A stretch of 64,000 bases of DNA, taken from assembly GCA_029261035.1 (NCBI GenBank), contig JAJDCD010000025.1, positions 66,926-130,925 of the forward strand, written 5' to 3'. Shown in pieces: positions 13,271 through 57,894 of this stretch. The DNA comes from Candidatus Omnitrophota bacterium. Its GTDB lineage: Bacteria; Omnitrophota; Omnitrophia; Omnitrophales; JACROU01. Numbering within the stretch: position 1 is the first letter of the stretch; every line of letters starts with the position of its first letter. Position numbers and translations under genes: made by a program. The notes beneath the pieces were generated by a model. The model worked only from the letters and a program-made list of their open reading frames with translations, was not told where the DNA came from and did not search any database.

Positions 13271-13711
13271 TTATGCGGATTCCTGGTCTTCTGGGGGGTC
13301 TTTCTTTTTTCTCTTTCTCTTACTTTTATTTTTTTCAGGCTCTAAGCTAAAAAGATGCTCTAGATGTAGAATTTGGGAATCTTCTACCGCTTCTTCCTCA
13401 ATTCTTCGAATGAGTGCACTAAAATCCTCTTCTTTCATTTCTAGGTATTCTAAACATATTGTAGTCAATAGACGGGTTATTAAATTGGACTGAATTTCCA
13501 AATCCTGAAGACGATCATTTGCTTCTGAAACTTGTTCCCAAATTTTATCAATATGTGTTTTAAGGTATTCAAGATCCATTGGAGGCGCAGTGGCTTTACC
13601 CTTAGACACCTTCTTCGATGCTCTAGCGGAAGTTTTCTTTGGAGCTTTCTTTTTGACTATTTTTTTCGACTTTTTTTTCATCAATTCACACCTATAAAGA
13701 AAGAGTAACAT
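13271..13711 (-). CDS. Hypothetical protein with Lys-rich termini. Candidate histone-like, nucleoid-associated protein.
   Basis: The likely start is the internal MKKKSKKIVKKKAPKKTSARASKKVSKGK. It has an acidic coiled-coil centre and a C-terminal KNKSKRKRKKKD. Confidence 0.4.
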   Translation of the reverse strand: MLLFLYRCELMKKKSKKIVKKKAPKKTSARASKKVSKGKATAPPMDLEYLKTHIDKIWEQVSEANDRLQDLEIQSNLITRLLTTICLEYLEMKEEDFSALIRRIEEEAVEDSQILHLEHLFSLEPEKNKSKRKRKKKDPPEDQESA

Positions 13712-20603: not shown

Positions 20604-22151
20604 TTAAATCAATGAAGACTTAGCTGGTTTCTTAGCAATATGAGCTGCAATTTTATTCAAAGCTCTTAAATACGCCTGAACACTTGCTTCAATCACATCG
20701 GTACTGGATCCACGTCCAATAACTTCTTTACCTTGAACCTTCATCTTGACTCGAACTTCACCCAAAGCATCTTTGCCGCTGGTCACAGAATTGATGGAAT
20801 AGTCCGTTAATTTAACCTTAATTCCAGTAATTTTTTCCAATGCTCGATAACAAGCATCTACAGGGCCGTCCCCTTTTGAGCTGCCCGATTTCAACTTTCC
20901 ATGAACTCTCAATTTAATTTTTGCTTTGGGGGTCTCATCTGTAGCAATTCTTGTTTCCATATGAACCAATTCCCAAACTGTAGGAATATCAGAAACAACA
21001 TCTTCAACTAAACGTTCGACATCTTCGTCAAAAACATACTTCTTTTTATCTGCAAGAATTTTAAACTTCTCAAACACACCATCCAACTCTACGTCTGTCA
21101 ATTCAAAGCCCAACGTTGTCAAACGATCTCTAAACGCATGTCGTCCAGAGTGTTTCCCCAAGACCAACTCACTCCCCTTTAAACCTACAGTTTGAGGATC
21201 AATAATTTCGTACGTTTGTCTCATTTTCAACACACCATCTTGATGAATCCCGGATTCATGACTAAACGCATTTCGACCCACAATGGCTTTATTCGGCTGA
21301 ACAATCATTCCTGTTAAATGAGAAACCATCTTAGAACTTTTAATAATCTCGTCTAATTTAATATCTGTATAACAATCCATAATATCTTTACGCGTATCAA
21401 TTGCCATCACCAACTCTTCCAAGGATGCATTTCCAGCACGCTCACCAATACCATTAACAGTACACTCCACCTGATTAGCTCCTGCTGAAACAGCCGCCAA
21501 CGAATTAGCCACGGCCAACCCTAAGTCATTATGACAATGAACAGACAAAACCACTTTTTTGCCTAATTGAGGATTGTTTTTAATCAAATATTTAATTAAA
21601 TCTTTAAACTCTTGCGGCACCGTGTATCCAACAGTATCTGGAATATTAATAGAAGTGGCACCTGCTTTAATTGCCGCCTTAACCATGTCTGATAAAAATT
21701 TTCTCTCCGTTCGGCAAGCATCTTCAGGAGAAAATTCGATCTGATCGAAATCTTTTCTACAATCTTTAATATATTTTGTAGTTAAATCAAATAACTCTTG
21801 TTTGGTTTTATGAAGCTTATGCTCACGATGGATTTGACTGGTCGCCAAAAAAACATGAATCCTTTTATTTTGTGCAAACTTCAAAGCCTTTTTTACAGCC
21901 TCAACATCCTTCTTTACCATACGAGCCAACCCACAAATAACAGGTTTTTTTACCTGTTTAGAGATCTTCTGAATAGCTTCAACCTCACCAGGAGAAGCTG
22001 CTGGAAAACCCGCCTCAATAACATCTACATTCAATCGCTCTAACTGAAGAGCCACCTTTAGCTTCTCAGCTGGAGTCAAAGATGCCCCAGGAGACTGCTC
22101 ACCATCTCGTAACGTAGTGTCAAAAATATGTATTTTTCTCTTCTTCTTCAT
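20604..22151 (-). CDS. leuA: 2-isopropylmalate synthase
   Basis: 515 aa. Motif IFDTTLRDGEQSPGASLT. It has a HxH metal site and a C-terminal LeuA dimerisation domain. Confidence 0.85.
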   Translation of the reverse strand: MKKKRKIHIFDTTLRDGEQSPGASLTPAEKLKVALQLERLNVDVIEAGFPAASPGEVEAIQKISKQVKKPVICGLARMVKKDVEAVKKALKFAQNKRIHVFLATSQIHREHKLHKTKQELFDLTTKYIKDCRKDFDQIEFSPEDACRTERKFLSDMVKAAIKAGATSINIPDTVGYTVPQEFKDLIKYLIKNNPQLGKKVVLSVHCHNDLGLAVANSLAAVSAGANQVECTVNGIGERAGNASLEELVMAIDTRKDIMDCYTDIKLDEIIKSSKMVSHLTGMIVQPNKAIVGRNAFSHESGIHQDGVLKMRQTYEIIDPQTVGLKGSELVLGKHSGRHAFRDRLTTLGFELTDVELDGVFEKFKILADKKKYVFDEDVERLVEDVVSDIPTVWELVHMETRIATDETPKAKIKLRVHGKLKSGSSKGDGPVDACYRALEKITGIKVKLTDYSINSVTSGKDALGEVRVKMKVQGKEVIGRGSSTDVIEASVQAYLRALNKIAAHIAKKPAKSSLI

Positions 22152-22426: not shown

Positions 22427-23458
22427 CTACCTCTTCCCAACACTTAAAGCACTTTGAGAACCAGAACTTGACTGAATCCAAGGCATCATTTTTCTTAACT
22501 CATCCCCCACCTTTTCAATCAAATGGCTATCATCACGATCTCTCATTTTATTATAATTACTACGATCTGTTTTATTCTCATTCATCCATTCTTCAGCAAA
22601 CTTTCCTGATTGAATTTCAGAAAGAATATTTTTCATTTCTTTTCTTGTCTCTTCAGTAATAATTCTGCGACCACGAGAATAATCTCCGTATTCTGCAGTA
22701 TCAGAAACTCGACGATGCATCCCTTTAATTCCGGAAACGAAAATAGCATCCGTAATCAATTTCAATTCATGAAGACATTCGAAATAAGCAATTTCAGGTT
22801 GGTACCCTGCATCCACCAAAGTTTCAAATCCAGCACGAATCAATTCACTGGTACCACCACAAAGAACCGCTTGCTCACCGAACAAATCAGTTTCTGTTTC
22901 TTCTTTAAATGTAGTTTCGATCACACCCGCTCTTGTTCCACCAATACCTTTAGCATGAGCTAGTGCAAGTTGCTTCGCATTTCCTGTAAAATCTTGCTGA
23001 ACCGCGATCAAACAAGGAACCCCTTTACCTTCCATATATTGAGAACGCACTAATGCACCTGGTCCTTTTGGAGCTACTAGAAAAATATCCACATTTTCAG
23101 GAGCCTTGATATATCCAAAATGAATATTAAAACCGTGAGAAAAAATCAACCCCTTACCTTCAGATAAGTGCTGTTTAATCTCATTTTCATACACTTCTAA
23201 CTGAATATGATCCTGAGTCAAAATCTGAATGTAATCCGCCTGCTCCGCTGCTTCAGCTGCAGTTACAGGTTGAAAACCATCTTTTACTGCTTGATCAAAA
23301 CTAGGGCTTGGTTGTCTTTGTCCAATAACAACATCCACACCACTATCTTTTAAATTTAAAGCTTGGCCTCTTCCTTGAATGCCATATCCAATAATTGCTA
23401 CTTTTTTTCCTTTTAACAGATTCAAATCTGCATCTTGATCGTAATACATCTTAGCCAT
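22427..23458 (-). CDS. ilvC: Ketol-acid reductoisomerase
   Basis: 343 aa. Motif [24 protein letters not shown]. Confidence 0.9.
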
Positions 23459-23493: not shown

Positions 23494-23528
23494 AAAAAAG
23501 GGGTCACTCGATTTACGAACGACCCCTT
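23494..23528 (-). terminator. Terminator- or attenuator-like hairpin between ilvH and ilvC
   Basis: The stem aaggggtc / gacccctt has a 15-nt loop. On the minus strand it is followed by TTTTTT, the complement of the A-run at 23494-23499. Confidence 0.4.
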
Positions 23529-23569: not shown

Positions 23570-24198
23570 TTACTTTTTAGCTTTCGCTACTTTTTTCTTA
23601 GCTTTAGATTTCTTTTTAACTGTTTTTTTAGCTGTCTTTTTTTTGACAACCTTTTTCTTACTCGTCTTACTTTTTGCTTTAGGGGCTTTTTTTAATTTTG
23701 AATTACTTGTCTTCTCAATATCTGAATTACGACTAATAGCTAAAAGCCCAGTTCTAACCACTTCGACCAAACCATAAGGTTCTAGTAATTCAAGCATCGC
23801 GTCCACTTTACCTTCAGTTCCTGTGATCTCAACAGTAACAAGTCTAGCATTCACATCTACAATTTTTGCTCTAAACGTATTAACTACTTGAATCACTTCA
23901 GAGCGAAGTGAGGCAGGTACTTTTAATTTCGCAATCACGAGTTCACGCGTGATTCGATCTTGTTCAGGCAAATCAAAAACTTTAATTACATCCACGAGTC
24001 GGTTCAATTGTTTTACAACCTGATCCAAAACACGATCATCACCGCGCGCCACAATAGTCATACGAGAAACACTAGGATCTTCCGTTTCTCCTACAGCTAA
24101 GCTATCAATATTAAAACCTCTGGCAGAAAACAAACCAGAAACAGATGCAAGAACACCAAAATGATTTTCAACTAAAACCGAGATCACATGCCTCATAA
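23570..24198 (-). CDS. ilvH: Acetolactate synthase small (regulatory) subunit with a C-terminal Lys/Ala-rich histone-H1-like tail
   Basis: The ACT domain begins MRHVISVLVENHFGVLASVSGLF. The preferred start is ATG 24198, which has an AAGGAG RBS 5 nt upstream. The ORF-track start at 24274 overlaps ilvB and adds a non-conserved 26 aa. The tail is KKAPKAKSKTSKKKVVKKKTAKKTVKKKSKAKKKVAKAKK. Confidence 0.8.
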
Positions 24199-24257
24199 AA
24201 ACTCCTTTGTCAAAGCTATAAGTCCTTGGCAACAAATGCCAAAACCCTAAGCTAAAT

Positions 24258-25946
24258 TTAAGCCATCCCCTCAATCATTTCTGAGTTGGACTTTCCTGCA
24301 GGAACCATTGGGTACACATTGTCTTCTTGTTGAACTTTAAAATGAAGAATCACAGGTCCTTTATATTCTTGAGCCTGCTTAATTATTTCAGGAACTTCAT
24401 GTTTCTTTGTTGCTCTTAAACCCAAAGCACCATAAGACTCCGCTAACTTAACATAATCGGGTCCTGGGATATAAGAATAAGAATACCGTTTATCATAAAA
24501 AATCTCCTGCCATTGCCGAACCATACCCAAATAGTTATTATCCAAAATCGCAATTTTAACAGGTAGTTCATGATCCACTGCTGTGGCCAATTCCTGAATA
24601 TTCATTTGGATACTACCATCTCCAGCAATACACCAAACATCTTTACCTGGCTTGGCAAAAGCAGCTCCAATCGCTGCCGGAAATCCAAATCCCATAGTCC
24701 CCAAACCACCACTCGTTACGTTTGTTCGCGGCTTCGTATAGTTCCAAAATTGAGCGGTCCACATTTGATGCTGACCCACCTCTGTCGTAACGACAGTTCC
24801 TCGATCACAACGTTTCGTAATCTCTTCAATCACATACTGAGATTTTAACTGTTCCTTTTCTCCTTGCGTATACTTTAGAGGATGCTTTGTCTTCCATTCA
24901 TTCAATTGCTTATGCCAAGGATTAATCTTTAGTTTTTTAATCTTTTTGGTCATCTCACTTAAGATTTGCTTCGCATCCCCAATAACATAACAATCTACTT
25001 CTACGTTCTTAGAAACAGAAGACGGATCAATGTCTAAGTGAATCTTTTTTGCTTTAGTTGCAAACTCAGAAACTTTCCCAGTAACACGGTCATCGAAACG
25101 GGCTCCAACAGCAATTAAACAATCACTTTCTTGAACTGCATGATTTGCGTAATATGTTCCATGCATACCTAACATTTTCAAAGAAAGAGTATCATCTTCA
25201 GGGTAAGCTCCTAATCCTAAAAGAGTCGTCGTAACAGGAATATTCGATTTCTTTGCAAAGTTATACAACTCTTTAGCTGCATTTGAAATAATAGCACCAT
25301 GACCTACGTAAAGAACGGGCTTCTTACTTTTTTGAATAATTTCTATTGCCGCATCTACATTTTGAGGGTTCGCCGCTTTAGGTGGATTGTATCCACGAAT
25401 GCTCACCTTTTTAGGATATTCAAACTCAGCAACATGCTGACTAATATCGATAGGAAAATCAATCAAAACAGGACCAGGCCTTCCCGTTTTAGCAATATAA
25501 AAAGCTTCTTTAGTAATTCTAGCAATATCTTTTACATCTTTAATTAAATAATTATGTTTTGTAATTGGACGTGTAATGCCAATAACATCCGCTTCTTGAA
25601 AAGCATCATTGCCAATTAAATAACTACGAACTTGTCCTGTAATAGCAACCATAGGAGCCGAGTCCATAAAAGCGGTGGCAATACCTGTAACTAAATTAGT
25701 TGCTCCAGGTCCAGAAGTTGCCATAACAACACCTGGTTTCCCTGTCGTTCTACCAACTGCGTCAGCCATGTGGGACGCACCTTGTTCATGACGCACTAAA
25801 ACCAATTTGATATCCGCATCATACAAAGCATCAAACACAGGAAGAATCGCTCCTCCAGGATATCCAAATATAACGTCTACACCTTCTTTTTTAATGCACT
25901 CAACCAAAATCTGCGCACCCGTCATCTTCATAACTAAATTCTCCAA
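24258..25946 (-). CDS. ilvB: Acetolactate synthase large (catalytic) subunit
   Basis: ThDP and FAD motifs GYPGGAILPVFDAL and GDGSIQMNIQEL. The likely true start is ATG 25931 (MKMTGAQ), which has a GGAG RBS. Confidence 0.85.
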   Translation of the reverse strand: MENLVMKMTGAQILVECIKKEGVDVIFGYPGGAILPVFDALYDADIKLVLVRHEQGASHMADAVGRTTGKPGVVMATSGPGATNLVTGIATAFMDSAPMVAITGQVRSYLIGNDAFQEADVIGITRPITKHNYLIKDVKDIARITKEAFYIAKTGRPGPVLIDFPIDISQHVAEFEYPKKVSIRGYNPPKAANPQNVDAAIEIIQKSKKPVLYVGHGAIISNAAKELYNFAKKSNIPVTTTLLGLGAYPEDDTLSLKMLGMHGTYYANHAVQESDCLIAVGARFDDRVTGKVSEFATKAKKIHLDIDPSSVSKNVEVDCYVIGDAKQILSEMTKKIKKLKINPWHKQLNEWKTKHPLKYTQGEKEQLKSQYVIEEITKRCDRGTVVTTEVGQHQMWTAQFWNYTKPRTNVTSGGLGTMGFGFPAAIGAAFAKPGKDVWCIAGDGSIQMNIQELATAVDHELPVKIAILDNNYLGMVRQWQEIFYDKRYSYSYIPGPDYVKLAESYGALGLRATKKHEVPEIIKQAQEYKGPVILHFKVQQEDNVYPMVPAGKSNSEMIEGMA

Positions 25947-26189
25947 TCCGTAATATGAATAAATAAAAGTCTTTAAATTATCGTCAAAAAATGTTTTCCA
26001 TTAAGAAATTGTTTAACTTAGCAGAAAAGTGACACTCCTAAGGAGCCTATAAACTAGCAAGACATAAACGATGATTATAACAATGGTGTTATCATCTGTC
26101 TATAGCTTTCAGCTATCAACCGTTAGCTATTAGCTTTAGGTAATTTAAGTCCTATAACCAAAATTTTGCGGTCTCTTTAGAGAAAAGGT

Positions 26190-28567: not shown

Positions 28568-31500
28568 TTATGCAGCTGTGAGAAGGGCTTGATACGCTTT
28601 AAAAGCTTGTTGGAGTTTACTGATTTTTTCTCTTAAGGAATTTTTAACAAAAGTAAAAACACCTCTCTTCTTATCTTTCCGAATATTGTCACGCACAGGT
28701 TTCATTAATGGATGAGACATATCCCCTTCGCTCATTCCCAACAAGAAAGCATGCGGCAATGCATAACGATTAAAATCTGCTAACTCAATACCTAAATCAC
28801 TTAACTCATTTGAAGAAGGGGTCTCTAACCTTTGGATCAACATAAGATCAATCGCACTTAATAATTCGGACGAACCTACAACGCTCAATCTACGATGAAC
28901 CATCGCCTGAGTTATATTTACACTCACTTCTTCAAAATACTGTTTTGCCAAATTTAAGATTTGAACAAAATCTTTTCCTGTTAAATAAGATTGAAAACTA
29001 TCGACTTCATCCCCTTTAAGTATAGGAATAACAAGAATTCGATCATTAATTAGCTCCCCATTTTTATCCTTCAAGAATTTTATTTTATTTTCAATCTGTT
29101 TGGCTTCTTTATTGGTTCCATAATAAAAAATTAAAGACACTGTTTTTGGATTATTCGTAAGTAATAGTGACTCCGACTCTACATCAAAGTAATCACTTGT
29201 TTTCATAACAACAGAAAAAGTCTCTGAATTCAAATCATAGGCATTAAACACACGACTTTGAGTTTCCGAAAGCACTCGATCAAAAGAAACAACCCTTGGA
29301 GATTCAGCATCCGCACTTTCAGCCGCAAAAGCTTTTGGATACCAAGAACTCATAACAAGTCTGTAAAGAGAGCTCTTCGCAGAAGAATAAAAGGACAAAG
29401 GTAAAATGCGTCCCGAAAATAACTGTGCCGTTTCTCTAACACGATCCACAACACCCAAACTTGCAGCAGAAACGTCTGCTAACTCAGGGTCATTGGAATA
29501 AATAAACCCTCCTCCAGAAGTACGATTTATAATATTTGCATGAAACACCGCTAAATCATGCTGATCTAACAAAGTATGAACTTGGTTAAAAAAAACAAAA
29601 TCTGATTTCCCAGACTCCAAATCACCTCTTGTTTTATACTTAAATGCCTGAACCCAAGCATTTACCTCTGGGTTATCAAGGTCCACTGTCACAAACTGCC
29701 AAGAGTCACTGACCCCTGGTAAAAAAGAAAATGCTTTTCTGATGTTGTTTCTCATGTCCTCAAAGTCTTTCTCCAAAGGAGTTACCGTTCTAAATCCTTC
29801 ATTAGGAATATATTTTTGAAACTTGTGCTTAAACCCATTCCACTGACCATAAACACCTCCATCTTTGTGTCTTAAGTCTATGAATGGGTAAATAATCTCC
29901 CCTCTTTTAAATGCTTCTAACACACGAGTGTCTCTATCTAAAATATTAAAATCTAAAGGAATCTCTTCTAAAGACACCCCCTCCTTTTGATACGCAGTCA
30001 TCATCAAAATTAAAATACTTAAAGGTTCTTCAAATACACCTGGACCTATTAAATCGATGGTTATTTTTTTATTTTGTTCATCGCTTTCCTTTTTCTTTCT
30101 AATCAACTCTCTTAACTTTAAATAAAAACTTTCATACTGTTTATGAGTCCTAAAAAACAACCCATACCGACCCGTTCCTTCATAATCCAAAGGAAGGGTA
30201 ACATCACTTTCTGGCTGAACCCAATACAAACTAAATTTTCCAAATTCTCTTTTATACTGGTCCATATCCTTAATTCCATTCAAATACATAAAGTACTCTC
30301 TAAAATCATCGTACCCACTAGCACGTGCAAAGCCTGACAAAGCCTTCAAAAAACTCTCTGAAAAGATGCGTCCCATATCTAATTGATGTATAAATGTTGC
30401 TCTAAAAGCTAAACTAGAAAGCATATCCGAAATCAAAACTCCATCCACACTCCCTATTCTTTTCACTAGACTCTTAGACACTTGTATTTCTCCTGTTTTA
30501 AAATCCGTTTGCTGCTGTCCCAGACTAGAAGCTCTCGAACGAGCAGCATCCATCACATCAACAACATCTTTAATTGTTTCTTTTGTATGATATGGAAGCA
30601 TAGACATCTTTACAGAATATGTTGGATCATCCTGAATTTTTAATAAATAATCATGCGGAGTCATTAAAATTAACTCTGAGTAACGAGCCATTGCAATTTT
30701 TCTGCTTTGCTCAGCAAATATTCGGACCATTCTGTCTTCAGTATATTCAGAGACCTGCTGTAAAAAATTAATTTGTTCTTTTAAGTAATCAACAAGCATA
30801 ATTAAATTCCACAAAAAAGAAGGTGTTGTTCCAGACTCACCCCAAAGCTCCCACAAATCACTATAGGGACTATCCAGTATTTCTATAAACTTATTTTTCT
30901 CAAGCAAGTCTCTAAAAGCACGTCTAGATTCAACAGAATTAACCGCTTTAATAATTCCCGCAGATGTAAATCCTGCTTTAAATAGCACTTCTTGTTTCCT
31001 CTCCAAAATTTCTCTTCTATCTTCTTCCAAATCATTATTCAAAATATTACTATTTCTATCGTACGCATCATGAGCTCTTTCCGACAATGTAGCAACAAAA
31101 TCTGTTGGAATATCAACATAAAGCAAACTTGTAACTCTAGGTAACCAACCCATTCTAACCTTTGCTTCAAAGTATTCCTCAGCAAAAAAACTTTTCCACA
31201 AAAATTGATACACCCCTTTTAAGTCGTTTACATTTAAAAGCTCTTGCTCCTTCTCTTTATTCCACCCACTATGATTCAATAATCCTTGAACCAAGCCTTC
31301 TACAAAGAACTCAAATCCATCATATTTCTCAAAATGATGCAAACTATCAACAGCAGAAACCGAAGATAATAAAGCGTCACTCACTTTCAGTTCTTTGCGC
31401 CTAGCACTTGTGAAAGGGTATTCATAAAGCATTCTAGAAGCAAAAAAGTCTGTCAAAACAAATCGTTGTCCTTGATTTATAGTTATTAATTTTTCTGGGT

Positions 31501-34500
31501 TTGTTAAGGGAATACGTCCTTGAACAAATTGATATGCCAATGCCTTTCCATAACCATAAGCAGCTTGTTGCACCCATGACTTCTCATCCTTTTTTTCTAT
31601 TAATTCTCCTTCATGAGTTGCTCGAATGGAACCTGGGCTCAACCTTAAAAGATACCCTTGTTTATTCGTTTTGTGTTCAAATTGAATACTAGCAATTACC
31701 CTAACAAGAGTCTCTTTTTCATACCCTTCTAAAGTAAAAGTCCCATATTGTTGCAAAGCATCAAATTCTCTTTTAGCCTCTCCAGCCGTCAGTCCTCCTC
31801 GAATACCTCTAAAGGAATCTTCGTAATCATAACCGCCTTCTGGAGTCCCAACCCCTTTTAATTCAAGAAAAAACTCTTGGCCATTCAACGAAAAAATCAA
31901 AGGCATTCCATTCTTTAAAACAATTCCTGTCCTCCCACCTGCACGCGTACCAATTTCAGGAGGAGTTACAGACATCAACACACTATAATCTTCCCCAATA
32001 TCTTCAGAGCTCGTAACAAGAACAGCCCCTGATAAAAAGTATTCTTTTAAGTCCTCCGGAACCATTTCCCAATCTACGGATGTTTCCATACTAACTTCAT
32101 CCATCAGAGTAAATGCGAGAGGTATTTCTTCCACAGATCTCAAATCTGTCCATTGAGCCTTAAAAGTCGCTGAGTCAGCATTTACAACATTTCTAAACTC
32201 TCTCCCTTTAGAATACACTGGTTGTATTTTTCCATCTCCATCTCTTGATAACCCAACAAGAAGATCGCCTTCCTGTCTAGCACTTTCAAACCTCTCTCTA
32301 ACCTCAGAATCTTCTACACTTTCAAGCTCGCTCAACTTCTCAGGCTCTGGCCAAAAATCGATTTTCTCACCACTATTTCGCTGCCAAATAACAAGCCCTT
32401 TCTGTAGAAGCTTACTTCCAAAATCAGAAAAAAACCTCAAGCCCCCCTCAAGCTTTTGGTAAGCTTTTGTAGGAGAACCATAAAGCTCTCTCAACATATC
32501 AAGCGTATGAACCCTTCCTTGGAGTTTGGATTCTTTGCTAAAATATTCCGACATAGTTTCGAAGTGAATCTTAGCAAAACTAATGTTAGGCCTATTAAAA
32601 GCTCCTATAAGATCTTCTATATGTCTATACGTATCTTTATGCCATTTCTTAATTCTTTGCTTTAACCTACTACGTAAAGACCAATAATCATTTTGAGGCT
32701 GCACTTCTGAAACAATTAAAACAGGATTATTAGACGCATCCCTCGATACCACGACATGCATCCAACCAATAAGACCTGGTCCCTCTGGAAAATTTTTCAA
32801 ATCCACCTCTCCCAAAACACCTCTAACCTCCTCTAAATCTTTTGTGTATTTAGTACCCTTTGAATCAACCAAAACATACACAACCAACGTTGGCTCATAA
32901 CTTTCATTAAAGAATGGGAGACGATCAATGCTTGCAGACAACTTGTATTTACCTAACTTTGAACTTTTATTAATACTCTCTTTAACTCTCTCTAAAAACC
33001 TCCAGTTCTCCAAGTAAATTGCTAAATTTCTACTTTGATCTGAATTCTCATTATTCAAACCAAGAGAAGATGCATCTACCTTACTCAACACTTTCTCTCG
33101 ACTTGCTACAACAGGAAGGTCGCCATCAGTTATTGAAGCCTGATAACTTTGATAAATCTCTTCAAAATAACTGCTATTAGAAAATAACTCAAAAACATCT
33201 TTCGATAATTTTGGATCAGAAAAAGAAAAATCAAAACCTAGCAAAACAACATTAATTAATTGCTGCACCCTTTCATCAGACAATCCTAAATGAGATAAAT
33301 TATTACTCATAGAGTCCCTTAAATAACCAGCAAACTGATTAGCAACATCAATATAAAATTGAACTTTTCCTTGATAATCAATTAAATAAAACTGTAATTC
33401 TCCCTTATGATCATCAACAACCACCTCCGCATTAGGCCATCCTCCCACCTTTTGATAGAAAGAACCTATAACCTTCCCAAACTGATAAAAGGCATTATCA
33501 AGAAAACCTTCATCCCCTAACCTTTCTCTGTTAACTAAAAGCCATTCATCAAAACTAATTCCAGGAGTATAGTCTTTGATATAAACTCTAATTGGATCTT
33601 CCTTATCAAATCCAATCTGAACAAATTGAAGAGGGCGAGTTAAGTAAGGCGTCTTTTCATAATCTTTCATACTTTCTTGGTATTCCATATACGTATGAGA
33701 ATCCGTAACAGCCCCATCCACACGATACATAAACTTGTCTGTAGCTGCCGTTAGATAAAAAACTTCATCTGGGCTTCTTAGCACAATAAGGTCCACCTTC
33801 TTATTGGACCCTTTAGCCTTACTTAAATCTATGAGCTCAATATCAAATTCGGAAAGTGGCTTGTCTGAACCTCTAAGTTCAAGAACATTTTCAAGTGTTC
33901 TTAATCCAGTTTTCTTATCCTTTACCAATAAAGCAGCCAAGATGCTTAAATGTGTGTCATGAATACCCTCTAACTCCTTATGAGAATCATAAACTTTAGT
34001 TTTAGCCAATATCTTTTCAACCTCTTCATCAAATTCAACCCGTTTAAAACGAAAGAATCTTCTCGTGCTCTCCTTAACTGATTCTTTAAATACAAGAGTC
34101 TCTTTTAATTGTTCAACACCCAATGATTGAGCCTCTGAAATCAAAGAGTCTTCCTGAGTAACCACACCTTCCTTTTCTTCTATAGACATAATCTGACTAA
34201 AGAAGTCTTTAACCACCCTTTCCATTTCGTTCTGTAACGCTAAATTATTTTGACTGTAGTGCTTATGCTGTGTTCCTTTCTGTAAAGTCACTACGTTTGA
34301 CCCTGAATCAGACCGCACTTCTGGATCAATGATAAAACGATGAGATACATTCTTCAAACCAGAGAAGGCCAAAACAAGATCCAGCTCTTTAGCAGAAGGA
34401 TCCACTGAAAAATAAACAGAACCCACCCCACTTGGAAGGCCCTTCACTTTTAAAGAAACATGCCAATCATAACCTCTCTCTAAATCAAAAAGCTTAGGAC

Positions 34501-37500
34501 CTTCATGTTCGATTTCTTCTGGTAGATTTTCTTTTTTGAACAGATCTTTAAACCTTTGAATTAAAGGAGTTGGATCAATAGGATAAATAGATGAGAAAAA
34601 GATAGCATCCGAAGCCTCTTCTGCTTCAGACAAATCTAACTCTAAATTAATTAAAGTAACTTCTTCATCCAAAGCAGGAAAGGAAATACGTCTGCTGTCC
34701 TTATCAAAAGATAATATGGGTTTAAAGGTCTTCAGAGAATCAAAAAGTCTCGCGCTCTGAGAAGGATAAATCGGCTCTTCTGATTCATATAAAACATAAT
34801 ACGTATCATCCACTAATACATAAGGGTCTAAATTTTCGGAGGTCCATATACGAGAAACATTCCCTACGTAGGCTTTACCATCAGACTGTTCTCTTAAAAA
34901 ACGATTTAACTCATATTCAAACAACAGTTCTTCAGTGCTAACATCGTCTCTTTTCATTAAAACATACTGCTTCCCATCAACATCCTCAAAACTCCAATAA
35001 ACATCGCTCAGTTTTTTTACCTGGACAAAACCTTCAATTCCAAATAAAGGCTCCACTCTCTGAATAAACTCCCCTTCAACACCTAAACTTCGGGCGGTGA
35101 AAAATTCTAAAACATCTCTATTGGGGTGCTTATTTTTAAATTCGTTACGACCTCTAAAGTTAACTCCTGTTCCAGTTAAATCAACCACCTCTAACTTTAC
35201 TAAGTTAAGTAAAGCTTCTAAGTTTCGATTCTTCACATCTCTTATTCTAGCCAAATACAGTTCCTTCAAATTAGTTAACTTGCTAATTATCTCTAAATCA
35301 CTTCCTTTTATTTGAGTCCTAGTTAGATTCAGCACTTCTAAATTTCTTAGAGCTTCTAACTGTTTTAACCCAGTTCCAGTTACCCTAGTTCCACTTAGAC
35401 GAAGTTCCTTCAGATTAGTTAATTGGATTATATCCTCAAGAGCACGATCTCCAACTTCAGAGCCTATCAAAGAGAGGGTTTTTAAATTTAGTAAATTCCT
35501 TAAATAGTTTAACCCTTCATCCATTACTTGGGTTCGATCCATTATAAGGCTTTCTAAATTCGTCAACTTTCTCAAATGTACTAACCCTTCACCCGTTACT
35601 TGCGTATCTTTTATATCAAGATTTTTCAAACTTATTAAACCACTCAAATGAGTCAGCTCTTCATTTCCAATGTCAAGTTCACTCAGATCAAGACTTCTCA
35701 AATTAGCATGTTCTTTTAAATGCCCAAGCTCTTCATTTCCAATGTCATAATAAATAAATAAAAGAAATCCTAAATTTTTTATCCCTCTTAATTTACTTAG
35801 TGAGACATTTTCAAATGGTAAGAAACCAAGTTTGATATTTAGCATTAAAGTATCTTCTTCAAAACCTACAGCTTCTCTAAATTCACCTTGTTCATATACA
35901 GAAGGATTATTCAAATCATCTAAACGACCTTTTATATCCTCTCTCACCCGTGCTTTATATTCTTCTATCACCTGTTGACCTTTTTTCGTTTCTCTTATTC
36001 GTCGTATAGCTTGTTTATGCTGCTCATGATAACTATCTGGAAAAAGGATACCTTGAGCCCACCCTCCTTCCAACACTCTCATCACTTCATCTTCTCTTCC
36101 AAGTCCTCCCAGCCTATGAAGAACCATCCCTCTCAACCCAAAATTTTCTGGGTATTCGTGCAACGCTCTCATCATTTCATTTAATCCCATATCAGGGCCT
36201 ATACCAAGGCTTTGCGCTTCTGTACTTTTAGGCTCATCTTCATCATCTGTTTCAACCCAAGAGATATTTCTATAATTTACCTCTACATCTCTTCTTGCAA
36301 GATAAATTCCTCCCGCTCCTGTCCCGACAGCAACAAGCAATAAGAGTGCGGGAATAGCTATAGGCATAGAGAATAAGAAAGAAAACAAACCTAAGGTAAA
36401 CATGTTGATTCCTAAAAAGACAATTCTTTCTCCTCGAGTAGAGCCTGGGGTCAAAGTGCTTTGTGGAAAATCAAAATCTTGAACATCCTCATCTCCTAAA
36501 CTAGCTCCCACAACAGCTCTTCGATCTCTTTCTCTATCATCAAGAATGCTTCTTTCTTCAAAAGACACATCTGACATTTCGCTTCTCAACAAATCCTGAT
36601 AATTACTCACCTGATCGAACAAAAACCAATTACGTTCTGTTGGCTTTAATCTTAATTGTTGTTCAGCTTGAGCAGCTCGATATTCCTCAAGCAATTCATC
36701 GTACTCCAACAACTCACTCTCATCTCCTTCGTAACGAAGTAATGCTGCTTGAAACATTTCGAGCAAAAGTCCTAATTTCAAGTCTAAATGCCTCAATTGC
36801 TCAATTTGATCAAAAACTTCTTTTCCCTTTTGCACAAAAAAGTTTTCTTCAAAAATATATCCACGAAGAACTTCATAAGTTGTTTTTTTCTTTTTTATTT
36901 GAATAGGTTGCCCATCTACATCTCGTGATGCTGTAGCCACTGGCATAAGCATTCTTCTTTCTTCAGACCAAACACCCGAATTGATTTCGCGAGACATTGC
37001 CCAAATAGCTGCAGTCCATAGAAAAGGAATCAAAGTCATCAGGATACTAAAAATAGAAAAAATAGTTGCGTTTTGAATTGCCGCATCCGGGCCAGGGCCA
37101 ACAATAAATGAATGAATACCTATAGGAAGCAAAGAAAATGGCATATATTGAAATAAAAACTTCGTGAAAAAATCTTGAAAAAGTACAATTCGGTTCGCAT
37201 GTCGTTCAGGGTTTTGAACAGCAGACACAAAAGAGTATAATTGAGAAGACATGGCACTATAAGCATCCCCTGCACTTCCTCCATAGGCTCCGTGCCAAGC
37301 AAAGATTTCATCCGCCTCTTTTCTGTAAGATTTTCCTAAAGCACGAATATCTTTTATGACTTGTTTTACAGCTTCATTCCGATCAGAAGAAAGGTTCGGA
37401 TTAGAAAAAATATTCGCCACTTCACTTACTGCCACTGAGCGTTTTTGTATCGACCTCATGGATGGAAGCAGCATAATAAGTGCTGTTGCAAATACATTCC

Positions 37501-40500
37501 TATGGGGAGGCGGAATATTCGTATTAATAGCAGCATCCCTCAGAATAAGCACCGCTTTTTTGCGGTTGCCAATGTAGCCCTCCCGTCTCATCAGTGCAAC
37601 AATAACTTCCGCAGCCTGCTGCACCTGTCCTTCTGTATATAACCGCCATGCATCATCAAATTCTAAAGCAGGTTCTTGAGATCGCAATTCTTCTTTCCCC
37701 AAACTCGCTCCTTCAATTTGACGATCATCTTTTTTCTTCTTTTTCTTAAGCTTTATACTTAGCTTTTCTGGAGTTTCTGATATGTCTGGGGTTGTTGAGA
37801 TGGAAAAACCCAAACTTGAAAATCGAATAGAAAGCTGATCTTTATAACTCTCTATTTGAGCTTGCATCCTTGGGCTCTCAGTTTGAAACTCATCTAGAAA
37901 CTCATGAAATCCCTGTACATCTTGAATAATTCGATTTTTTAAATTAAGATTATCGAAATCATCTGCATATTTAAAAATAAGGGATGCAATTTCATTTAGT
38001 AAAATTAACCTTGAGTCTAAACTGTCCAGATATTCAAATTGACTCAATAAATATTTGCGTGACTGTTTATCGTTAAATAAAGATTTTTCTGATTCCCATA
38101 TCAACCTTCTAACATGGCTTACAATGTCACGATCAGCTAATTTGTTTTGATCAAAGAGCTCCTCACGAAGCTCTCTTCTTTCTCTTATTTTATTGAATAC
38201 TTTTTTAAGAGTCCCAACAATGACAATAAGAGAAACAAAAGATATCAATACATTGATATTAAAATGAGATGTGTAAAATCGATGAGGATTAACGTCGAAA
38301 AAAGAATGGTAAATGCTAACTAAAGGAATAATAGCAATCACCCAAGCAAAACTCGCCACTAATGCAAGACCTTCTATTTCATTAAAATCCCTATTTCTAT
38401 AAACTGTCAAAGGATCTTCTATTAAATGCTCTGTCTCAAAGATGAAATCGGATGTAAGATAATACTTTTGCTTATCATCTTCTTTTCTAATTGAGTAATT
38501 AAAACGATCTGTATTCTCCTGCATCAAATAAGTCCTCAATAAACGCTTCGCATCTAACCCATATTCTGAATTTGTTAAAATTTCAGCATACTGATCAATT
38601 TCTTCTCTCGATTGAGAAATTACGCCTTTCATCCCTTCTGTTGCTAAAATAAGCTCAACATAATAACGAGCTACACTTCTTCTCTTCTTTCTGTCTTTAT
38701 AGTAATACAGATGATGACTGTGCAAATATTCAATTATTTCTCTTTGATAAATATTTTCTGCTGGCAATGGCCTATATTCCAAAAGCAAATCCAAAGCTTC
38801 TCCATGACGTTGTGCTTCTCTTAAAGACCGGTGTCTAACAGCCAATTTATTTGCTTCATCATCTGTTAAATCCACACTAACTCTTTCTTTTGGATCAGAT
38901 CTGTCTGAATAATCAAACGGAAATTCATCTTTGGAAAACTGCTTACCCAAACTCGCACCTTCTAGCTGACGGTCATCTCTTACTTTTCCAGTTTTAGAAT
39001 CTTCTGCAATTGGAGGGGCGGAAATATCTCTTTGAATATCTGGAAATGGAATATCAGGAAATTGTTGAATTAAGAATTCCCGCAGGTTTTTAGATTGGTC
39101 TTTGATGGGCTCCGACACGGAACTTATTTCTGTTAAAAATTGATAAAAGGCTACAATTTCATTATTGAGCCACTCTACCAACAATGGGTTTTCTTTTTCT
39201 TCCGAATATTTAATGACGGCTGCTGCTAATTCATTCAGCAAATAAATTTGAGCATCCGTGGTTCTCAGTTTTTCAAATTGAAGTTTAATGTATTGACGAT
39301 GTTTTTCATCATTAAAGAAATAGCTGTCTGTTGTCCATAACTTCTTATTAACTGCCTTAACAATTTCTTGATCACTCTCACCTAAAGATTCAAAAAGAAT
39401 TTGGTTCTGAAGTTCTAGATAATTAAGATCTTTTCCTCTGTTTTTATCCAACATCATTCTAAAAATAGCAATTAAAGATATGATTGGAATTAAAATGGCA
39501 ACTCCTCCAAGAACATAATCCGATATCTGAGAAGCCTCTAGCAAAACACGAGTGCCTAAGGTAATAAAAATTGCTGGCATTGGAACAAGTATCCAATTTT
39601 GTTTTCTGAAAATTACATTAAAAATTGAAGGGTTTCCAATTTCTTCCAAGTAAGCTTGAGGATCTAAAATCATTCTAGAAGCATGTTCTGCATCTCGTGC
39701 TGTTTTATAATAAGGCCCAGCAGGTCCTGAACCATATTGACCACCACCCCACTCAACATACTCCTTATACTTTTGGGCGCCTTGCTCATTTAGTTCTTTT
39801 GAAAGCTGTTTCAATAGATTTGAAGCTGTTTCCGCTGAAACAGCAGACGAGATTAGATCAACCATTTTGTCTTGAAGGTCCCAATCATCAAATTTAGATT
39901 CTACACCTGGCAACAATTGAATAAAAAACTTAGCTGCTTTTCTTCGAATTTGCACAGGTTGTGTTTGATCAAACAGCAATGGATAAACTAAATCAAAACT
40001 TTGTTTTCGATATTCATCATTATCGGGTAATATTCCTGGAGAACGCGCTAATAGAATATGAATCATCTTTTCATAAAAACCCAATTGAAATAAACCCTTA
40101 GCTTGAGTCAATCGATTTCTAGCATCTTCGATACCTGCTACGGATAACCTTTCATCAAAACCAAACTGCCTTTCAGTAAGTGGCGAGTTTCCCATAATAG
40201 AGCGTCGACGAGACACTTCCTCTCCAGCCGCACCAGGATCAAAATCACGCCATTTAAGCCACATCTGCTCTGTATCTACAACTGTCAAATCCAAAGGCTC
40301 TGGATGCTTTTCATAAATCTGTCTAATTTCTTCTCGAGATACTGGAGTCTGGTAAAAACTAACATGCAATAAATTCTCCATACCTTCAATCAAACTAATG
40401 TCTACCGACTCTAAACCATCTAGATTTAAATCAATCTCTTCTTTCCATTCATTCAGAATAACTCTCTTATCCCACTCCTCTTCTAGTCCATTGACTCTTA

Positions 40501-42718: not shown

Positions 42719-44785
42719 TTATTTACGTTTTGATTTAGGGTGGTAGATTCGGTGGGTTTTGGTCTTTGGCTTAATTGTAGACATTTGCCCGGGCTTTGAT
42801 TGGGGCAGTATTTCTAAGCCGTACTCTTTCTCGAGCTCTCTAATCTGGTCTCTGTATTTAGCTGCTTTATCAAAATCCAAAGCACTAGAGGATCGTTCCA
42901 TTTTTTCTTTTAGATAAGAAAGGTAGGTTTTAATATCATGCTCTTCTTTACTTTCTCCAACTACATCTGAAACCATATCTTCTGCTTTTCGAGTAGACGC
43001 AATACCATCATAAATTGCTTTTACAATTGATTTGGGTTCAATGTGATTATCTTCATTATATTTTTTCTGAATTTCTCTACGTCGATCTGTTTCTGTAATC
43101 GCTTTTCTCATCGAGTCCGTAATACGATCCGCGTACATAATGACACGCCCATTTAGGTTTCGAGCCGCACGACCTGCTGTCTGGATCAAGGCCACTTCAC
43201 TCCGTAAAAAGCCTTCCTTATCGGCATCTAATATAGCAACCAAGGAAACTTCCGGTAAATCCAAACCTTCTCTCAGTAAATTAATCCCTATTAAACAATC
43301 AAATTTTCTTAGACGAAGGTCTTTCAAAATTTGCACACGTTCTATAGCATCAATTTCAGAATGTAAATATCGGACTTGAACACCCATATCTTTTAAATAA
43401 CGAGCTAAGTCTTCGGACATCCTTTTGGTTAAGGTCGTCACCAAAACTCTCTCATGTTTAGCTGCTCGATCTTTAATTTCATGCATCAGGTCATCGATCT
43501 GTCCTTCCGTCTTTCGTATTTCAATTTCCGGATCAATCAAACCTGTAGGACGAATAATTTGTTCTACAACCTGATCTTTTCTTTCCATCTCATACGGGCC
43601 TGGTGTGGCAGAAACATACAGGGTCTGTCCTACTGCCTTCTCAAATTCTTTAAAATTAAGAGGACGGTTGTCTAAGGCTGATGGCAACCTAAACCCATGA
43701 TCTACCAATGTCTTTTTCCTTGCTTGGTCCCCGTTATACATACCCCGAACCTGAGGAACTGTCACGTGAGACTCATCAATGATCAAAAGGAAATCTTTAG
43801 GGAAGTAATCGATTAAAGTATAAGGTTTAGAACCTGCTTCTCTGCGAGAAAGGTGTCTTGAGTAGTTTTCAATACCACTGCAATAACCCACTTCTTGAAG
43901 CATTTCAAGATCGTAAAGTGTTTTCGAGTACAATCGTTTTGCTTCCAGCTCTTTTCCAGCAAGCTTCAAAGTTTTGACTTGTGATCCTAATTCATCTTCG
44001 ATATCCTTCATACCTTCTTTAATTCGCTCCGAAGTCGTCACAAAGTGCTTGGCTGGATATACTGCTATTTTTTCTAGATCTTGAACAGGTTGGTTCGTAT
44101 CTTTATCCAGAAGACAAATACGCTCTATCTCATCCCCAAACATTTCAATGCGAATTGGATTTTCCCCATAAGAAGGAAATAATTCTAAAATATCTCCGCG
44201 AACTCTAATATTCCCTCGTTTAAAATCAACATCGGCTCTAGAGTATTGGATAGCTATAAGTTCTTTCAACAAATCATCTCGATCAATATGCTGTCCCTTT
44301 TCTACCTGAACCAACAATCCTTGCCAATCCTCAGGAGATCCTAAACCATAAATACAAGATACCGAAGAAACAATGATCGCATCATCTCGAGAAAGAAGAG
44401 CGCTCGTTGCCGCTAAACGCAACCGATCCAAATCATCATTGATAGAAGCATCTTTTTCTATATAAGTATCTGTATAAGGGATATACGCTTCTGGCTGGTA
44501 ATAATCATAATAAGAAACAAAATACTCGACTGCATTTTCAGGGAAAAATTCTTTTAACTCGGAATATAACTGTGCCGCTAAAGTTTTGTTATGAGAAATA
44601 ACCAGCGTTGGCTTTTGATATTGAGCAATCAAATTAGCCATCGTAAAGGTCTTACCCGAACCGGTCACACCTAAAAGAACCTGTTCTTTCATCCCCTCTT
44701 GAAACCCTCGAACCAATTTCTCAATCGCTTGAGGTTGGTCTCCTTTAGGTTTATAGGGAGAAACCAGCTTAAATGTGTCTGTCAT
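42719..44785 (-). CDS. uvrB: Excinuclease ABC subunit B
   Basis: 688 aa. Walker [16 protein letters not shown]. Helicase motifs and a UVR domain are present. The C-terminus has a short basic tail. Confidence 0.9.
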
Positions 44786-49264: not shown

Positions 49265-49653
49265 CGTCATTGCGAGCATCAACAAAAGATGCGTGGCAAT
49301 CTCAGGAGTAATGGTTATAAAGTTTCGTAAAGATCATTAAATTCTGGATTAAACTTTTGAATTAACTCTAATTTCTTTTTTCTCGATCCTGCTTTTATTT
49401 GCTTTTCCCTCTCTATTGCAGTTCTAATATCATCTGCTACTTCAAAGTAAATTAACTTATCCAAGTTATACTTTTTAGAAAAACCATCAGTGAGCTTTTT
49501 CTTATGCTCAAAAATTCTTTTCTTAAGATCGCTGGTAACACCCGTATAGATTGTAGTGTTGTTCTTATTTGTTAAGAAGTATATATAACCTGATTCATCC
49601 ATTTTTCTATGCCTGAGATTGCCGCGGCCTTTTTGTCGCTACCTCGCAATGAC
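49265..49653. mobile_element. Candidate miniature mobile element: a GIY-YIG nuclease gene bracketed by 42-bp terminal inverted repeats
   Basis: Left arm, 49265-49306: gtcattgcgag-N14-gcgtggcaatctcagg. Right arm, 49612-49653, is the inverted gtcattgcgag-N14-gccgcggcaatctcagg. Both ctcagg ends face the ORF. Solo copies of the arm occur at 26286, 56561 and 57815. Confidence 0.45.
49315..49602 (-). CDS. Small GIY-YIG (URI-domain) nuclease of the UPF0213/COG2827 type
   Basis: 95 aa. Begins GYIYFLTNKNNTTIYTGVTSDLKKRIFEH, where GxIY...YTG is the GIY-YIG core. It is the size of stand-alone URI nucleases. Confidence 0.75.
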   Translation of the reverse strand: MDESGYIYFLTNKNNTTIYTGVTSDLKKRIFEHKKKLTDGFSKKYNLDKLIYFEVADDIRTAIEREKQIKAGSRKKKLELIQKFNPEFNDLYETL

Positions 49654-56608: not shown

Positions 56609-57214
56609 CTATTTTTCCTTCAATATTTTCTTATGAATTTCCAGCAAAGGTTGGATATTACCTTGATCTGCTTCTTTTAATGCTGCTAGATAGGTCTTTC
56701 TAAAGGTCTTTTCGATGAACAGTTCATCCTCAGGCCATTCCAAGTAAGCTCCCAATTCACCTTTTAAGTAAAGGTTGGTAATTAATCGAGCCCACCTTCC
56801 ATTCCCATTACTAAAAGGATGAATCCAAACAAGTCGGTGATGCAAAAGAGCAGAAATCTCTATAGCATCTCTACCCTTCTCAACCCAATAAGAAAAATCC
56901 TCTTCTAGCTTTTTAAGTTCCGTAGAAATCTTATAAGGTTCAACACCCACATTAAACCCTACACTTCTAACTTTCCCTGCCCAATTCCAAACATCACAAA
57001 ACATATCTTTATGAACCCTCAAGAAAAAATGCATATCATATTTAACAGCTTCTTTAGAACTCAGGTTTAAATAATACTTCGTCAATGCTTTATTGATATT
57101 AATAAACTCAGCTTCAAACAGCTCCTCCCTTGTTGATAAATCTTGCTTTAGCCCAGAAATATCATCCAAAGGCGTCGCTCCTAATGGAGTTGATTGACTT
57201 AATTTTCTCGCCAT
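56609..57214 (-). CDS. Fic/Doc-family protein (Fido fold, candidate AMPylator)
   Basis: 201 aa. Fic motif IHPFSNGNGRWARLITN. Its start overlaps the upstream HTH gene by 16 nt. The pair resembles the HTH plus Fic pairs found on mobile elements. Confidence 0.75.
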   Translation of the reverse strand: MARKLSQSTPLGATPLDDISGLKQDLSTREELFEAEFININKALTKYYLNLSSKEAVKYDMHFFLRVHKDMFCDVWNWAGKVRSVGFNVGVEPYKISTELKKLEEDFSYWVEKGRDAIEISALLHHRLVWIHPFSNGNGRWARLITNLYLKGELGAYLEWPEDELFIEKTFRKTYLAALKEADQGNIQPLLEIHKKILKEK

Positions 57215-57690
57215 AAAACATCTCGATGCTTTGTCATAATTTGTTTTTTTAACTCTTCTACCTGTTCTTCAATTAAATCAGATGGAGGCTTCTGAGATTC
57301 CATAGCAGCATTCGCAACAGAAAGCTCTATAATCTCTCTCGCTTTCTCCTCCGCTTTTTTATCTATAAATGCAGCAATATCTTCTTTGGGAACAAGTTGA
57401 ATTAACAGCTCACAATTCAAACCTTCTGCAATTTTTTTTAACGTAGAAAGTCTCGGATCCACAGACTCATTCTCCACACGAGATAACATCATCTGCTCTC
57501 CATGAACTCGCTTAGCTAATTGCACCTGAGTCATTCCAAGTGCCTTTCTCATCAACTTCAACTGCCGACTCACAGCCTGCCTCAACGCAAGCCACTGCGG
57601 CAACTCCCCAACCGTATGGTACTTTCCACTAAATCGAACTAACTCTCTCTTGGTTTTCATATCTCTCACCTCTATATAATTATAATACAT
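57199..57690 (-). CDS. XRE-family helix-turn-helix protein, a putative regulator or antitoxin partner of the Fic protein
   Basis: 163 aa. HTH segment LRKALGMTQVQLAKRVHGEQMMLSRVE. It overlaps the fic start. An AT-rich promoter-like tract lies upstream at 57676-57730. Confidence 0.65.
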   Translation of the reverse strand: MYYNYIEVRDMKTKRELVRFSGKYHTVGELPQWLALRQAVSRQLKLMRKALGMTQVQLAKRVHGEQMMLSRVENESVDPRLSTLKKIAEGLNCELLIQLVPKEDIAAFIDKKAEEKAREIIELSVANAAMESQKPPSDLIEEQVEELKKQIMTKHRDVLWREN

Positions 57691-57842: not shown

Positions 57843-57894
57843 AAAGGGGACAGGCAACTTTTCTATTTGTTAAAAAAAGTAGCCTGTCCCCTTT
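57843..57894 (-). terminator. 13-bp-stem hairpin immediately after the stop codon of giant gene 2
   Basis: The stem is aaaggggacaggc / gcctgtccccttt. The 27-nt loop contains a T-run. The hairpin overlaps the TAA at 57893-95. Confidence 0.35.

Follow-up and report, generated by a model that had tools for sequence, protein, structure and literature searches.

Organization of the locus

We analysed a 64,000-nt stretch of Candidatus Omnitrophota bacterium (assembly GCA_029261035.1, contig JAJDCD010000025.1, positions 66,926-130,925 of the forward strand), which we refer to as the window. Its GC content is ~37%, and its proteins have their closest named homologues in Candidatus Omnitrophota/Omnitrophica MAGs. 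Thirty-six of its 37 called ORFs share the minus strand, a co-oriented run of unusual length, and the GC skew on the plus strand is negative across the whole 64 kb. An exact-protein look-up of the genes at its edges gave no record by which the stretch could be lengthened. The window contains a minus-strand cluster with the order ilvB-ilvH-ilvC-leuA, after which come genes for aromatic amino acids. The large subunit of acetolactate synthase is encoded by ilvB (24258-25946), which lies immediately upstream of ilvH (23570-24196), the gene of the small, regulatory subunit; ilvC (22427-23458) and leuA (20604-22151) come next. The gene order is the same in the nearest relative, L162.

A near-consensus sigma-70-type promoter (TAGACA, 17 nt, TG-TATAAT; 11 of 12 matches) is present at 26074-26102 of the minus strand, ~130 nt upstream of ilvB. 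An Rfam scan of the window matched no family and placed no leader or T-box near ilvB. The 114-nt intergenic region between ilvH and ilvC has an RNA folding energy of -32.1 kcal/mol (z = -3.2). After the ilvH stop and ahead of the ilvC start, a 13-bp GC-rich hairpin is followed by U6 (23494-23528, minus strand), forming a terminator- or attenuator-like element, and the ribosome-binding site of ilvC comes next. A GC-rich inverted repeat of different sequence occupies the same position in L162, as read by eye from the alignment rather than from a fold. Because the hairpin and its U6 sit inside the ilv/leu cluster, transcription of the cluster may be attenuated at this point or fall into two units.

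Two very large ORFs with hydrophobic N-termini are found on the minus strand of the window. One, of 4668 aa (28568-42574), gives weak leucine-rich-repeat matches in Pfam at residues 2292-2472, and a comparable ORF of >3500 aa is located at the same position in L162; the other, of 1986 aa (57893-63853), has no Pfam match. Also on the minus strand, the gene of an HTH_3 protein (57199-57690) overlaps that of a Fic/DOC protein (56609-57214), a pair that looks like a toxin-antitoxin-type module. A stand-alone 95-aa ORF with a GIY-YIG nuclease domain (49315-49602, minus strand) is positioned between valS and a second LeuA/CimA-like gene.

An orthodox IlvH core

The ORF list gives ilvH as 23570-24274 on the minus strand. 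The true start is the ATG at 24196, which lies 6 nt downstream of the Shine-Dalgarno sequence AAGGAG (24202-24207, read from the sequence), and the product is therefore 208 aa long, tail included; the stop codon is a TAA at 23570-23572. Residues 1-160 (23717-24196), comprising the ACT and ALS_ss_C domains, match family profiles over their full length: PRK11895 (NCBIfam) over profile positions 2-161 of 164 (2e-64, 216 bits, cut-off 119) and TIGR00119 over positions 1-157 of 158 (8e-61, 205 bits, cut-off 57). Pfam assigns residues 5-72 to ACT_AHAS_ss and residues 84-156 to ALS_ss_C. In an AF2 model built with 68 orthologues, the block-mean pLDDT lies at 84-97 over residues 1-150 and at 75 over residues 151-160, and the predicted core contains the beta-alpha-beta-beta-alpha-beta unit twice, as expected. 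Every family criterion that we tested identifies the protein as an IlvH-type acetolactate (acetohydroxyacid) synthase (AHAS) small subunit.

Asn11, Gly14 and Asn29 (N11, G14 and N29), which we take to be the ACT-dimer valine-site residues of E. coli IlvH known from valine-resistant mutants, are invariant columns in the alignment of the 68 orthologues. This invariance argues that valine regulation is retained. The full-length core at residues 1-160, the adjacency to ilvB and the valine-site residues are all shared with canonical IlvH proteins (E. coli AHAS III, 2F1F; Nitrosomonas, 2PC6). In contrast to these, which end at ~163-165 residues, the window IlvH runs 48 residues further.

A genuine lysine-rich C-terminal tail

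Residues 161-208 (23573-23716, minus strand; EKTSNSKLKKAPKAKSKTSKKKVVKKKTAKKTVKKKSKAKKKVAKAKK) form a Lys-rich tail. Its 48 residues include 25 Lys, 6 Ala, 5 Ser, 4 Thr, 4 Val and a single Glu, with no Arg, so that Lys accounts for 52% of the tail and the net charge is +24. At the window-wide Lys frequency of 8.4%, the probability of finding at least 25 Lys in 48 residues is ~5e-15. AF2 models this segment as coil without secondary structure (pLDDT 51-65), and the tail is predicted to be intrinsically disordered. The earlier note, written from the DNA sequence, had placed a Lys-rich tail on IlvH at 23570-23711. The tail is indeed in frame and lies beyond a complete IlvH, the ORF ends exactly as quoted there, and the coordinates were correct to within a few bases. 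The accompanying description, ~45 aa beyond the ACT domain, comes close to the length that we find and misplaces the starting point: the tail follows the second domain, ALS_ss_C, and not the ACT domain itself.

In the DNA, an imperfect 12-nt (4-codon) tandem repeat with 3.2 copies was detected by Tandem Repeats Finder within the tail-coding region (23603-23641, minus strand; period 12, 77% matches, score 50). The repeat would fit a tail that lengthened through short in-frame duplications. When the tail was used as the sole query, neither Pfam nor a set of 5.8 billion proteins gave a match at E<=10, a result that is uninformative for low-complexity sequence, where composition filters weaken such tests.

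The earlier note had itself named the finding that would overturn it, namely that a frameshift or sequencing error had joined IlvH to a separate small ORF. We considered this possibility together with a fusion to non-coding sequence. The only feature in its favour is the presence of A7-A8 runs in the tail DNA, which are error-prone in principle. Against it, an identical 208-aa protein (P0001) is present both in NCBI and in an independent assembly, that of run SRR15505516 in Logan. The nearest relative (P0002/L162; 80% identity, GC 0.374) has a tail of 32-33 aa, which differs from that of the window by gaps of 42 and 6 nt, each divisible by three. Codon usage is normal, with 17 AAA and 8 AAG among the tail's Lys codons (68% AAA, versus 66% AAA in other genes), and the frame closes at a normal stop codon followed by the terminator-like hairpin. 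Finally, in-frame tails of differing sequence occur in >100 orthologue clusters and in 17 species representatives. The second assembly, the in-frame indels, the orthologue tails and the codon usage rule out a frameshift or assembly artefact, whose probability we put at practically nil; the tail is genuine.

The tail marks one Omnitrophota clade

Our first homologue query included the tail, which could favour tailed matches, and the search was therefore repeated with the core only, using one genome per species and reading every match through to its stop codon. All 17 of the closest sequences (the window and L001-L016) carry a tail, of 19-48 aa and with a net charge of +1 to +24. Those with a taxonomic name are all Omnitrophota, while five bear no label beyond 'uncultured bacterium', and the GC content of the 17 genomes spans 0.37 to 0.57. 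A 19-aa tail with a net charge of +5 occurs in L069, from a different Omnitrophota group. In more distant Omnitrophota recovered by the core-only search, the tail is absent or short and non-basic, and the same search found it absent in Hydrogenedentota, Elusimicrobiota, Planctomycetota, Spirochaetota, Clostridia and others, including genomes with a GC content of 0.28-0.39. When the cores are placed in a neighbour-joining tree, those that bear tails group as one clade. Judged from these sequences, the tail appears to have arisen once, in one Omnitrophota clade. The comparison of ilvH orthologues that the earlier note had proposed thus separates a uniformly tailed clade from distant Omnitrophota and other phyla without a basic tail.

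The 120 best homologue clusters obtained with the tail-containing query are nearly all 175-203 aa long and end in tails of quite different sequence, with a median length of 27 aa and a median net charge of +6.5. Their overall composition is 30.5% Lys, 13.8% Ala, 9.9% Ser, 8.1% Glu, 6.9% Pro and 6.2% Thr. The Lys to Arg ratio is 1001:92 (11:1) in these tails, whereas the corresponding cores have 1095:1200. A net charge of zero or below was found in 7 of the 120 clusters, and one subgroup has mixed Lys/Glu tails (for example NLKKEKEE...). Because charge roughly doubles from the ~16 preceding residues to the last 12 (means of +2.3 and +4.7), many tails look, from their sequences, like a spacer with a terminal Lys cluster. 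Across the clade it is the composition of the tail that is conserved and not its sequence; orthologous tails share no repeat unit, and the window tail has no PAKKA motif.

We searched 1.84 billion representatives exhaustively with HMMER and obtained 10,381 relatives. Among the 150 best representatives (50% identity clusters), a simple motif located the end of the core in 95, and only 2-5 of these 95 have Lys-rich ends; the two clearest look Omnitrophota-like, and the others are very short. Arg-rich 'tails' among the family representatives look like frame errors in high-GC DNA. These counts, together with solved bacterial homologues, which end at about residue 160-165, bear out the earlier view that such a tail is unusual for the IlvH family.

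The GC content of the genomes shows a weak negative correlation with tail net charge (rho -0.40 to -0.45, p 0.05-0.09), which disappears once the two 37% GC genomes are left out; these two, the lowest in GC (0.37), carry the two most extreme tails. AT-richness was rejected as the sole cause of the tail, given that genomes of 44-57% GC have tails and outgroups of 28-39% GC have none. We likewise rejected the idea that ilvH fused with a small basic gene already present ahead of ilvC. Tail-less relatives show no space for one: in L024, the gene of a 157-aa IlvH begins at 10001, and the ilvC start is at 10478.

The tail is specific to IlvH in the sampled loci

We compared the maximal net charge per 25 aa across the 37 window ORFs. 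IlvH reaches +15 and a 136-aa ORF +13, with all others at or below +9. A net charge of at least +10 over the C-terminal 25 aa was found in 1 of 265 ORFs from tailed-clade loci, that one being the window IlvH, in 0 of 574 from the loci of other phyla and in 3 of 804 from unrelated contigs. In the closest relative, L162, IlvH is the only one of 14 ORFs to be so tailed. A proteome-wide fashion is therefore unsupported in the 37 window ORFs, the ~265 tailed-clade ORFs and the 14 ORFs of the closest relative. The tail is not a general trait of local ACT-domain proteins either: aspartate kinase and homoserine dehydrogenase, the other two ACT enzymes of the window, end in their ACT domains without a tail.

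Within the pathway, orthologue C-termini show no terminal extension in IlvB and ~10 non-basic extra residues in LeuA. Some Omnitrophota have short, mildly basic C-terminal extensions on IlvC, such as that of L008 (27 aa, net +7; L008:1659-2729) and that of L071 (25 aa, net +10; L071:2834-3895), whose IlvH has no basic tail. These sequences suggest that the basic tail may move between pathway enzymes. In the sampled loci, the tail is a clade-specific and essentially one-gene trait with a faint echo on IlvC. The earlier suggestion of a lineage-specific compositional fashion is accordingly borne out with respect to the lineage, a single Omnitrophota clade, and is unsupported, in the sequence sampled, as a general habit of the proteome.

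At the other end of a protein, the LeuA of the tailed clade has a short basic run (MKKKRKIHIFDT, MSGKRRKIHIFD, MKKKGRKIYIFD) preceding the conserved IFDTTLRDGEQ, seen in the window (20604-22151, minus strand) and in orthologues in L003, L005, L006 and L014. The run may be no more than an A-rich start region.

Two further proteins had been cited in the earlier note as carrying basic segments. The 136-aa ORF (13271-13681, minus strand), located downstream of dprA and an RDD-family gene, was annotated as 146 aa from 13711, and both versions are on record; the start is probably the ATG at 13681. The basic N-terminal run quoted in the earlier note is present, as is KRKRKKK near the C-terminus. The protein belongs to a small family of ~131-152 aa, represented by six clusters in 5.8 billion proteins and seen only in Omnitrophota-type contigs, with syntenic copies at L006:19480-19890 and L012:19637-20032. 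All copies have a basic N-terminus, and the conserved core reads DRLQDLEIHxNLLTRLLTTxCxE...RDSQILHLE. AF2 predicts helices at residues 34-79 and 84-111 (pLDDT >90), forming a helical hairpin between a disordered basic N-terminus and a disordered basic/acidic C-terminus. The protein has no Pfam match, and a fold search of the PDB was equally without a match.

The second case, a short basic tail on UvrB, is real as a sequence and unremarkable as a feature. The 34 residues (42722-42823, minus strand) that follow the Pfam UVR motif, which ends at residue 654, are mildly basic; the net charge of the last 25 aa is +9, no higher than that of some internal segments of other window proteins. Many UvrB homologues end, beyond the UVR motif, in stretches that are as basic or more so; these homologues come from unrelated metagenome contigs without taxonomy, and the comparison shows only that basic ends are common.

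Possible roles of the tail

We tentatively favour the view, at somewhat less than even confidence, that the tail acts as a non-specific electrostatic anchor, tethering IlvH to a cellular polyanion. On this reading, which leans on analogy, a translated, disordered and polycationic extension would have been added to an otherwise orthodox valine-sensing IlvH. Selection would act on the existence and composition of the tail (Lys rather than Arg, with Ala, Ser, Pro and Thr) and not on its sequence, while the tail would lengthen and shorten through in-frame indels and short duplications. The tail would emerge from the exposed C-terminus of the holoenzyme's regulatory core and, with several small subunits per holoenzyme, several tails could bind a polyanion avidly. 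Candidate partners would be nucleoid DNA, RNA or ribosomes, polyphosphate and acidic lipid. The outcome would be that the first enzyme of branched-chain amino-acid synthesis is localised or concentrated. In the plant small subunit, a linker of ~80 residues leaves the core at the same C-terminal point; the holoenzyme can thus accommodate an extension at this end, which is likely to be exposed to solvent. To our knowledge, IlvH has no nucleic-acid function. The wide variation in tail length and charge counts against a tether, and the neutral or negative tails and those with mixed Lys/Glu look, from their sequences, more like a disordered tail of a generic kind than like a strict polycation.

That variation is what one would expect if the tail were a tolerated, functionless low-complexity expansion, produced at an exposed, unconstrained C-terminus by a shift of the stop codon and subsequent slippage of A-rich Lys-coding repeats, and harmless to the enzyme. 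The unconserved sequence, the range in length from 19 to 48 aa, the 12-nt tandem repeat in the tail DNA and the indels that separate even close relatives all agree with this explanation. So do the nearly neutral tails, the occurrence of the most Lys-rich ones in the two 37% GC genomes, and the short mildly basic extensions of IlvC in the same clade. Yet ~7.6% of random codons would be stops, and every sampled clade member keeps at least 19 codons open (19-48 across the clade). Lys is preferred over Arg by 11:1 even at 50-57% GC, the low-GC outgroups (0.28-0.39) have no tail, and the genes adjoining ilvH in these genomes have no tail of this type. Because the frame is kept open, the Lys bias persists and low-GC outgroups are untailed, we read the pattern as selection on composition rather than drift, and consider a functionless expansion somewhat unlikely.

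Two further explanations keep the tail functional with other targets. As an intramolecular or inter-subunit regulator, it would fold onto acidic surfaces of IlvH or IlvB and tune assembly, activation or valine feedback. The C-terminal domain of the AHAS small subunit is established to contact the catalytic subunit, the valine-site residues are invariant, and the one hint lies in the charge of the IlvH cores, which are somewhat more acidic in the tailed clade (mean net -3.4) than in other lineages (-0.8). However, this small difference is far exceeded by the charge of the tails (+5 to +24), IlvB is slightly more basic and not more acidic in the tailed clade, and no conserved motif suggests a specific docking site; we regard a regulator of this type as unlikely. 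Simple charge compensation for an acidic core or partner was rejected, as the core effect (-3.4 versus -0.8) is too small. A polybasic membrane anchor, in which a terminal Lys cluster on a flexible spacer binds anionic phospholipids at the inner membrane, would account for the layout of many orthologues, where a neutral Pro-rich spacer leads to a cluster such as KKKxKKKKLAKAKK. The concentration of charge in the last 12 residues likewise resembles polybasic membrane-targeting ends. The tail nevertheless lacks hydrophobic or amphipathic residues for insertion into a bilayer, AF2 shows no helix in it, and we know of no reason for AHAS to bind membranes. We consider a membrane anchor very unlikely.

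A more far-reaching version of the tether, which we think distinctly unlikely, would make the AHAS regulatory subunit a recruited, multivalent polycationic scaffold that occupies the nucleoid, ribosomes/RNA or polyphosphate by means of several tails per holoenzyme. Such a scaffold would physically couple branched-chain amino-acid synthesis and its valine signal to the translation machinery or the genome, and would be the bacterial analogue of yeast Ilv5, which sits on mitochondrial nucleoids. Alternatively, the subunit would nucleate a condensate-like metabolon. The mildly basic ends of IlvC would fit such a pathway-level arrangement. The Omnitrophota of the tailed clade are reportedly ultra-small.

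Returning to the electrostatic anchor, its interest lies in where the tail is found. Lys-rich disordered tails recur in bacteria, nearly always on proteins that handle DNA or RNA, and here one sits on a metabolic regulatory subunit. Its restriction to one gene and its clade-wide retention in an uncultivated phylum suggest electrostatic localisation of a biosynthetic enzyme. Should the tail be functionless, it would still be a clean case of a clade-stable low-complexity extension.

Comparison with known systems

Our literature search found nothing on lysine-rich tails of Omnitrophota or on a C-terminal extension of an AHAS regulatory subunit. Metabolic proteins are normally depleted of low-complexity regions according to earlier, mainly eukaryotic, analyses cited in a prokaryotic survey (PMC6821194). 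The label 'histone-H1/Hc1-like' used in the earlier note holds for composition, with no detectable homology behind it. In common with the C-terminal domain of the eukaryotic linker histone H1 and with chlamydial Hc1/Hc2, the tail has a large excess of Lys over Arg together with Ala, Ser, Thr and Pro, a high positive charge and disorder. It differs in having 48 aa and no globular domain, the H1 counterpart being ~100 aa long. Pfam gave no match to the Linker_histone winged-helix domain, either for the whole protein (E<=0.01) or for the tail (E<=10), and none to the Hc1 profile for the tail at E<=10. 'Histone-like' labels drawn from composition do not imply homology.

The closest parallels are the tails of mycobacterial Hlp/HupB, Ku with its PAKKA repeats, Streptomyces HupS, topoisomerase I and Deinococcus HU, which are, like that of IlvH, terminal, predicted to be disordered, rich in Lys, Ala, Pro and Ser, and fast-evolving. 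Lys-rich low-complexity tails give Ku, Hlp/HU and topoisomerase I non-specific DNA binding, and bacterial Lys-rich tails are lineage-restricted and thought to have arisen repeatedly (PMC6821194, PMC3553676). At most, the IlvH tail would act as these do. In contrast to them, which sit on DNA-binding cores and modulate that binding, the IlvH tail is attached to a metabolic regulatory subunit. Its repetition is a weak 4-codon periodicity, with no PAKKA-type unit.

We know of no link between IlvH and polyphosphate. As an analogy, however, polyphosphate is a plausible alternative partner for the tail: this polyanion, which is not a nucleic acid, is bound by Lys-rich disordered regions, among them those of Pseudomonas AlgP, YihI and RNase R (PMC9239181, PMC12345225). 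AlgP, unlike IlvH, is a dedicated KPAA-repeat protein. A precedent for nucleoid coupling in the same pathway is offered by yeast Ilv5 (acetohydroxyacid reductoisomerase), a bifunctional mitochondrial nucleoid protein that is recruited on amino-acid starvation (PMC7463775). Ilv5 is the orthologue of IlvC and not of IlvH, is eukaryotic and organellar, and binds DNA through its folded protein rather than through a Lys-rich tail.
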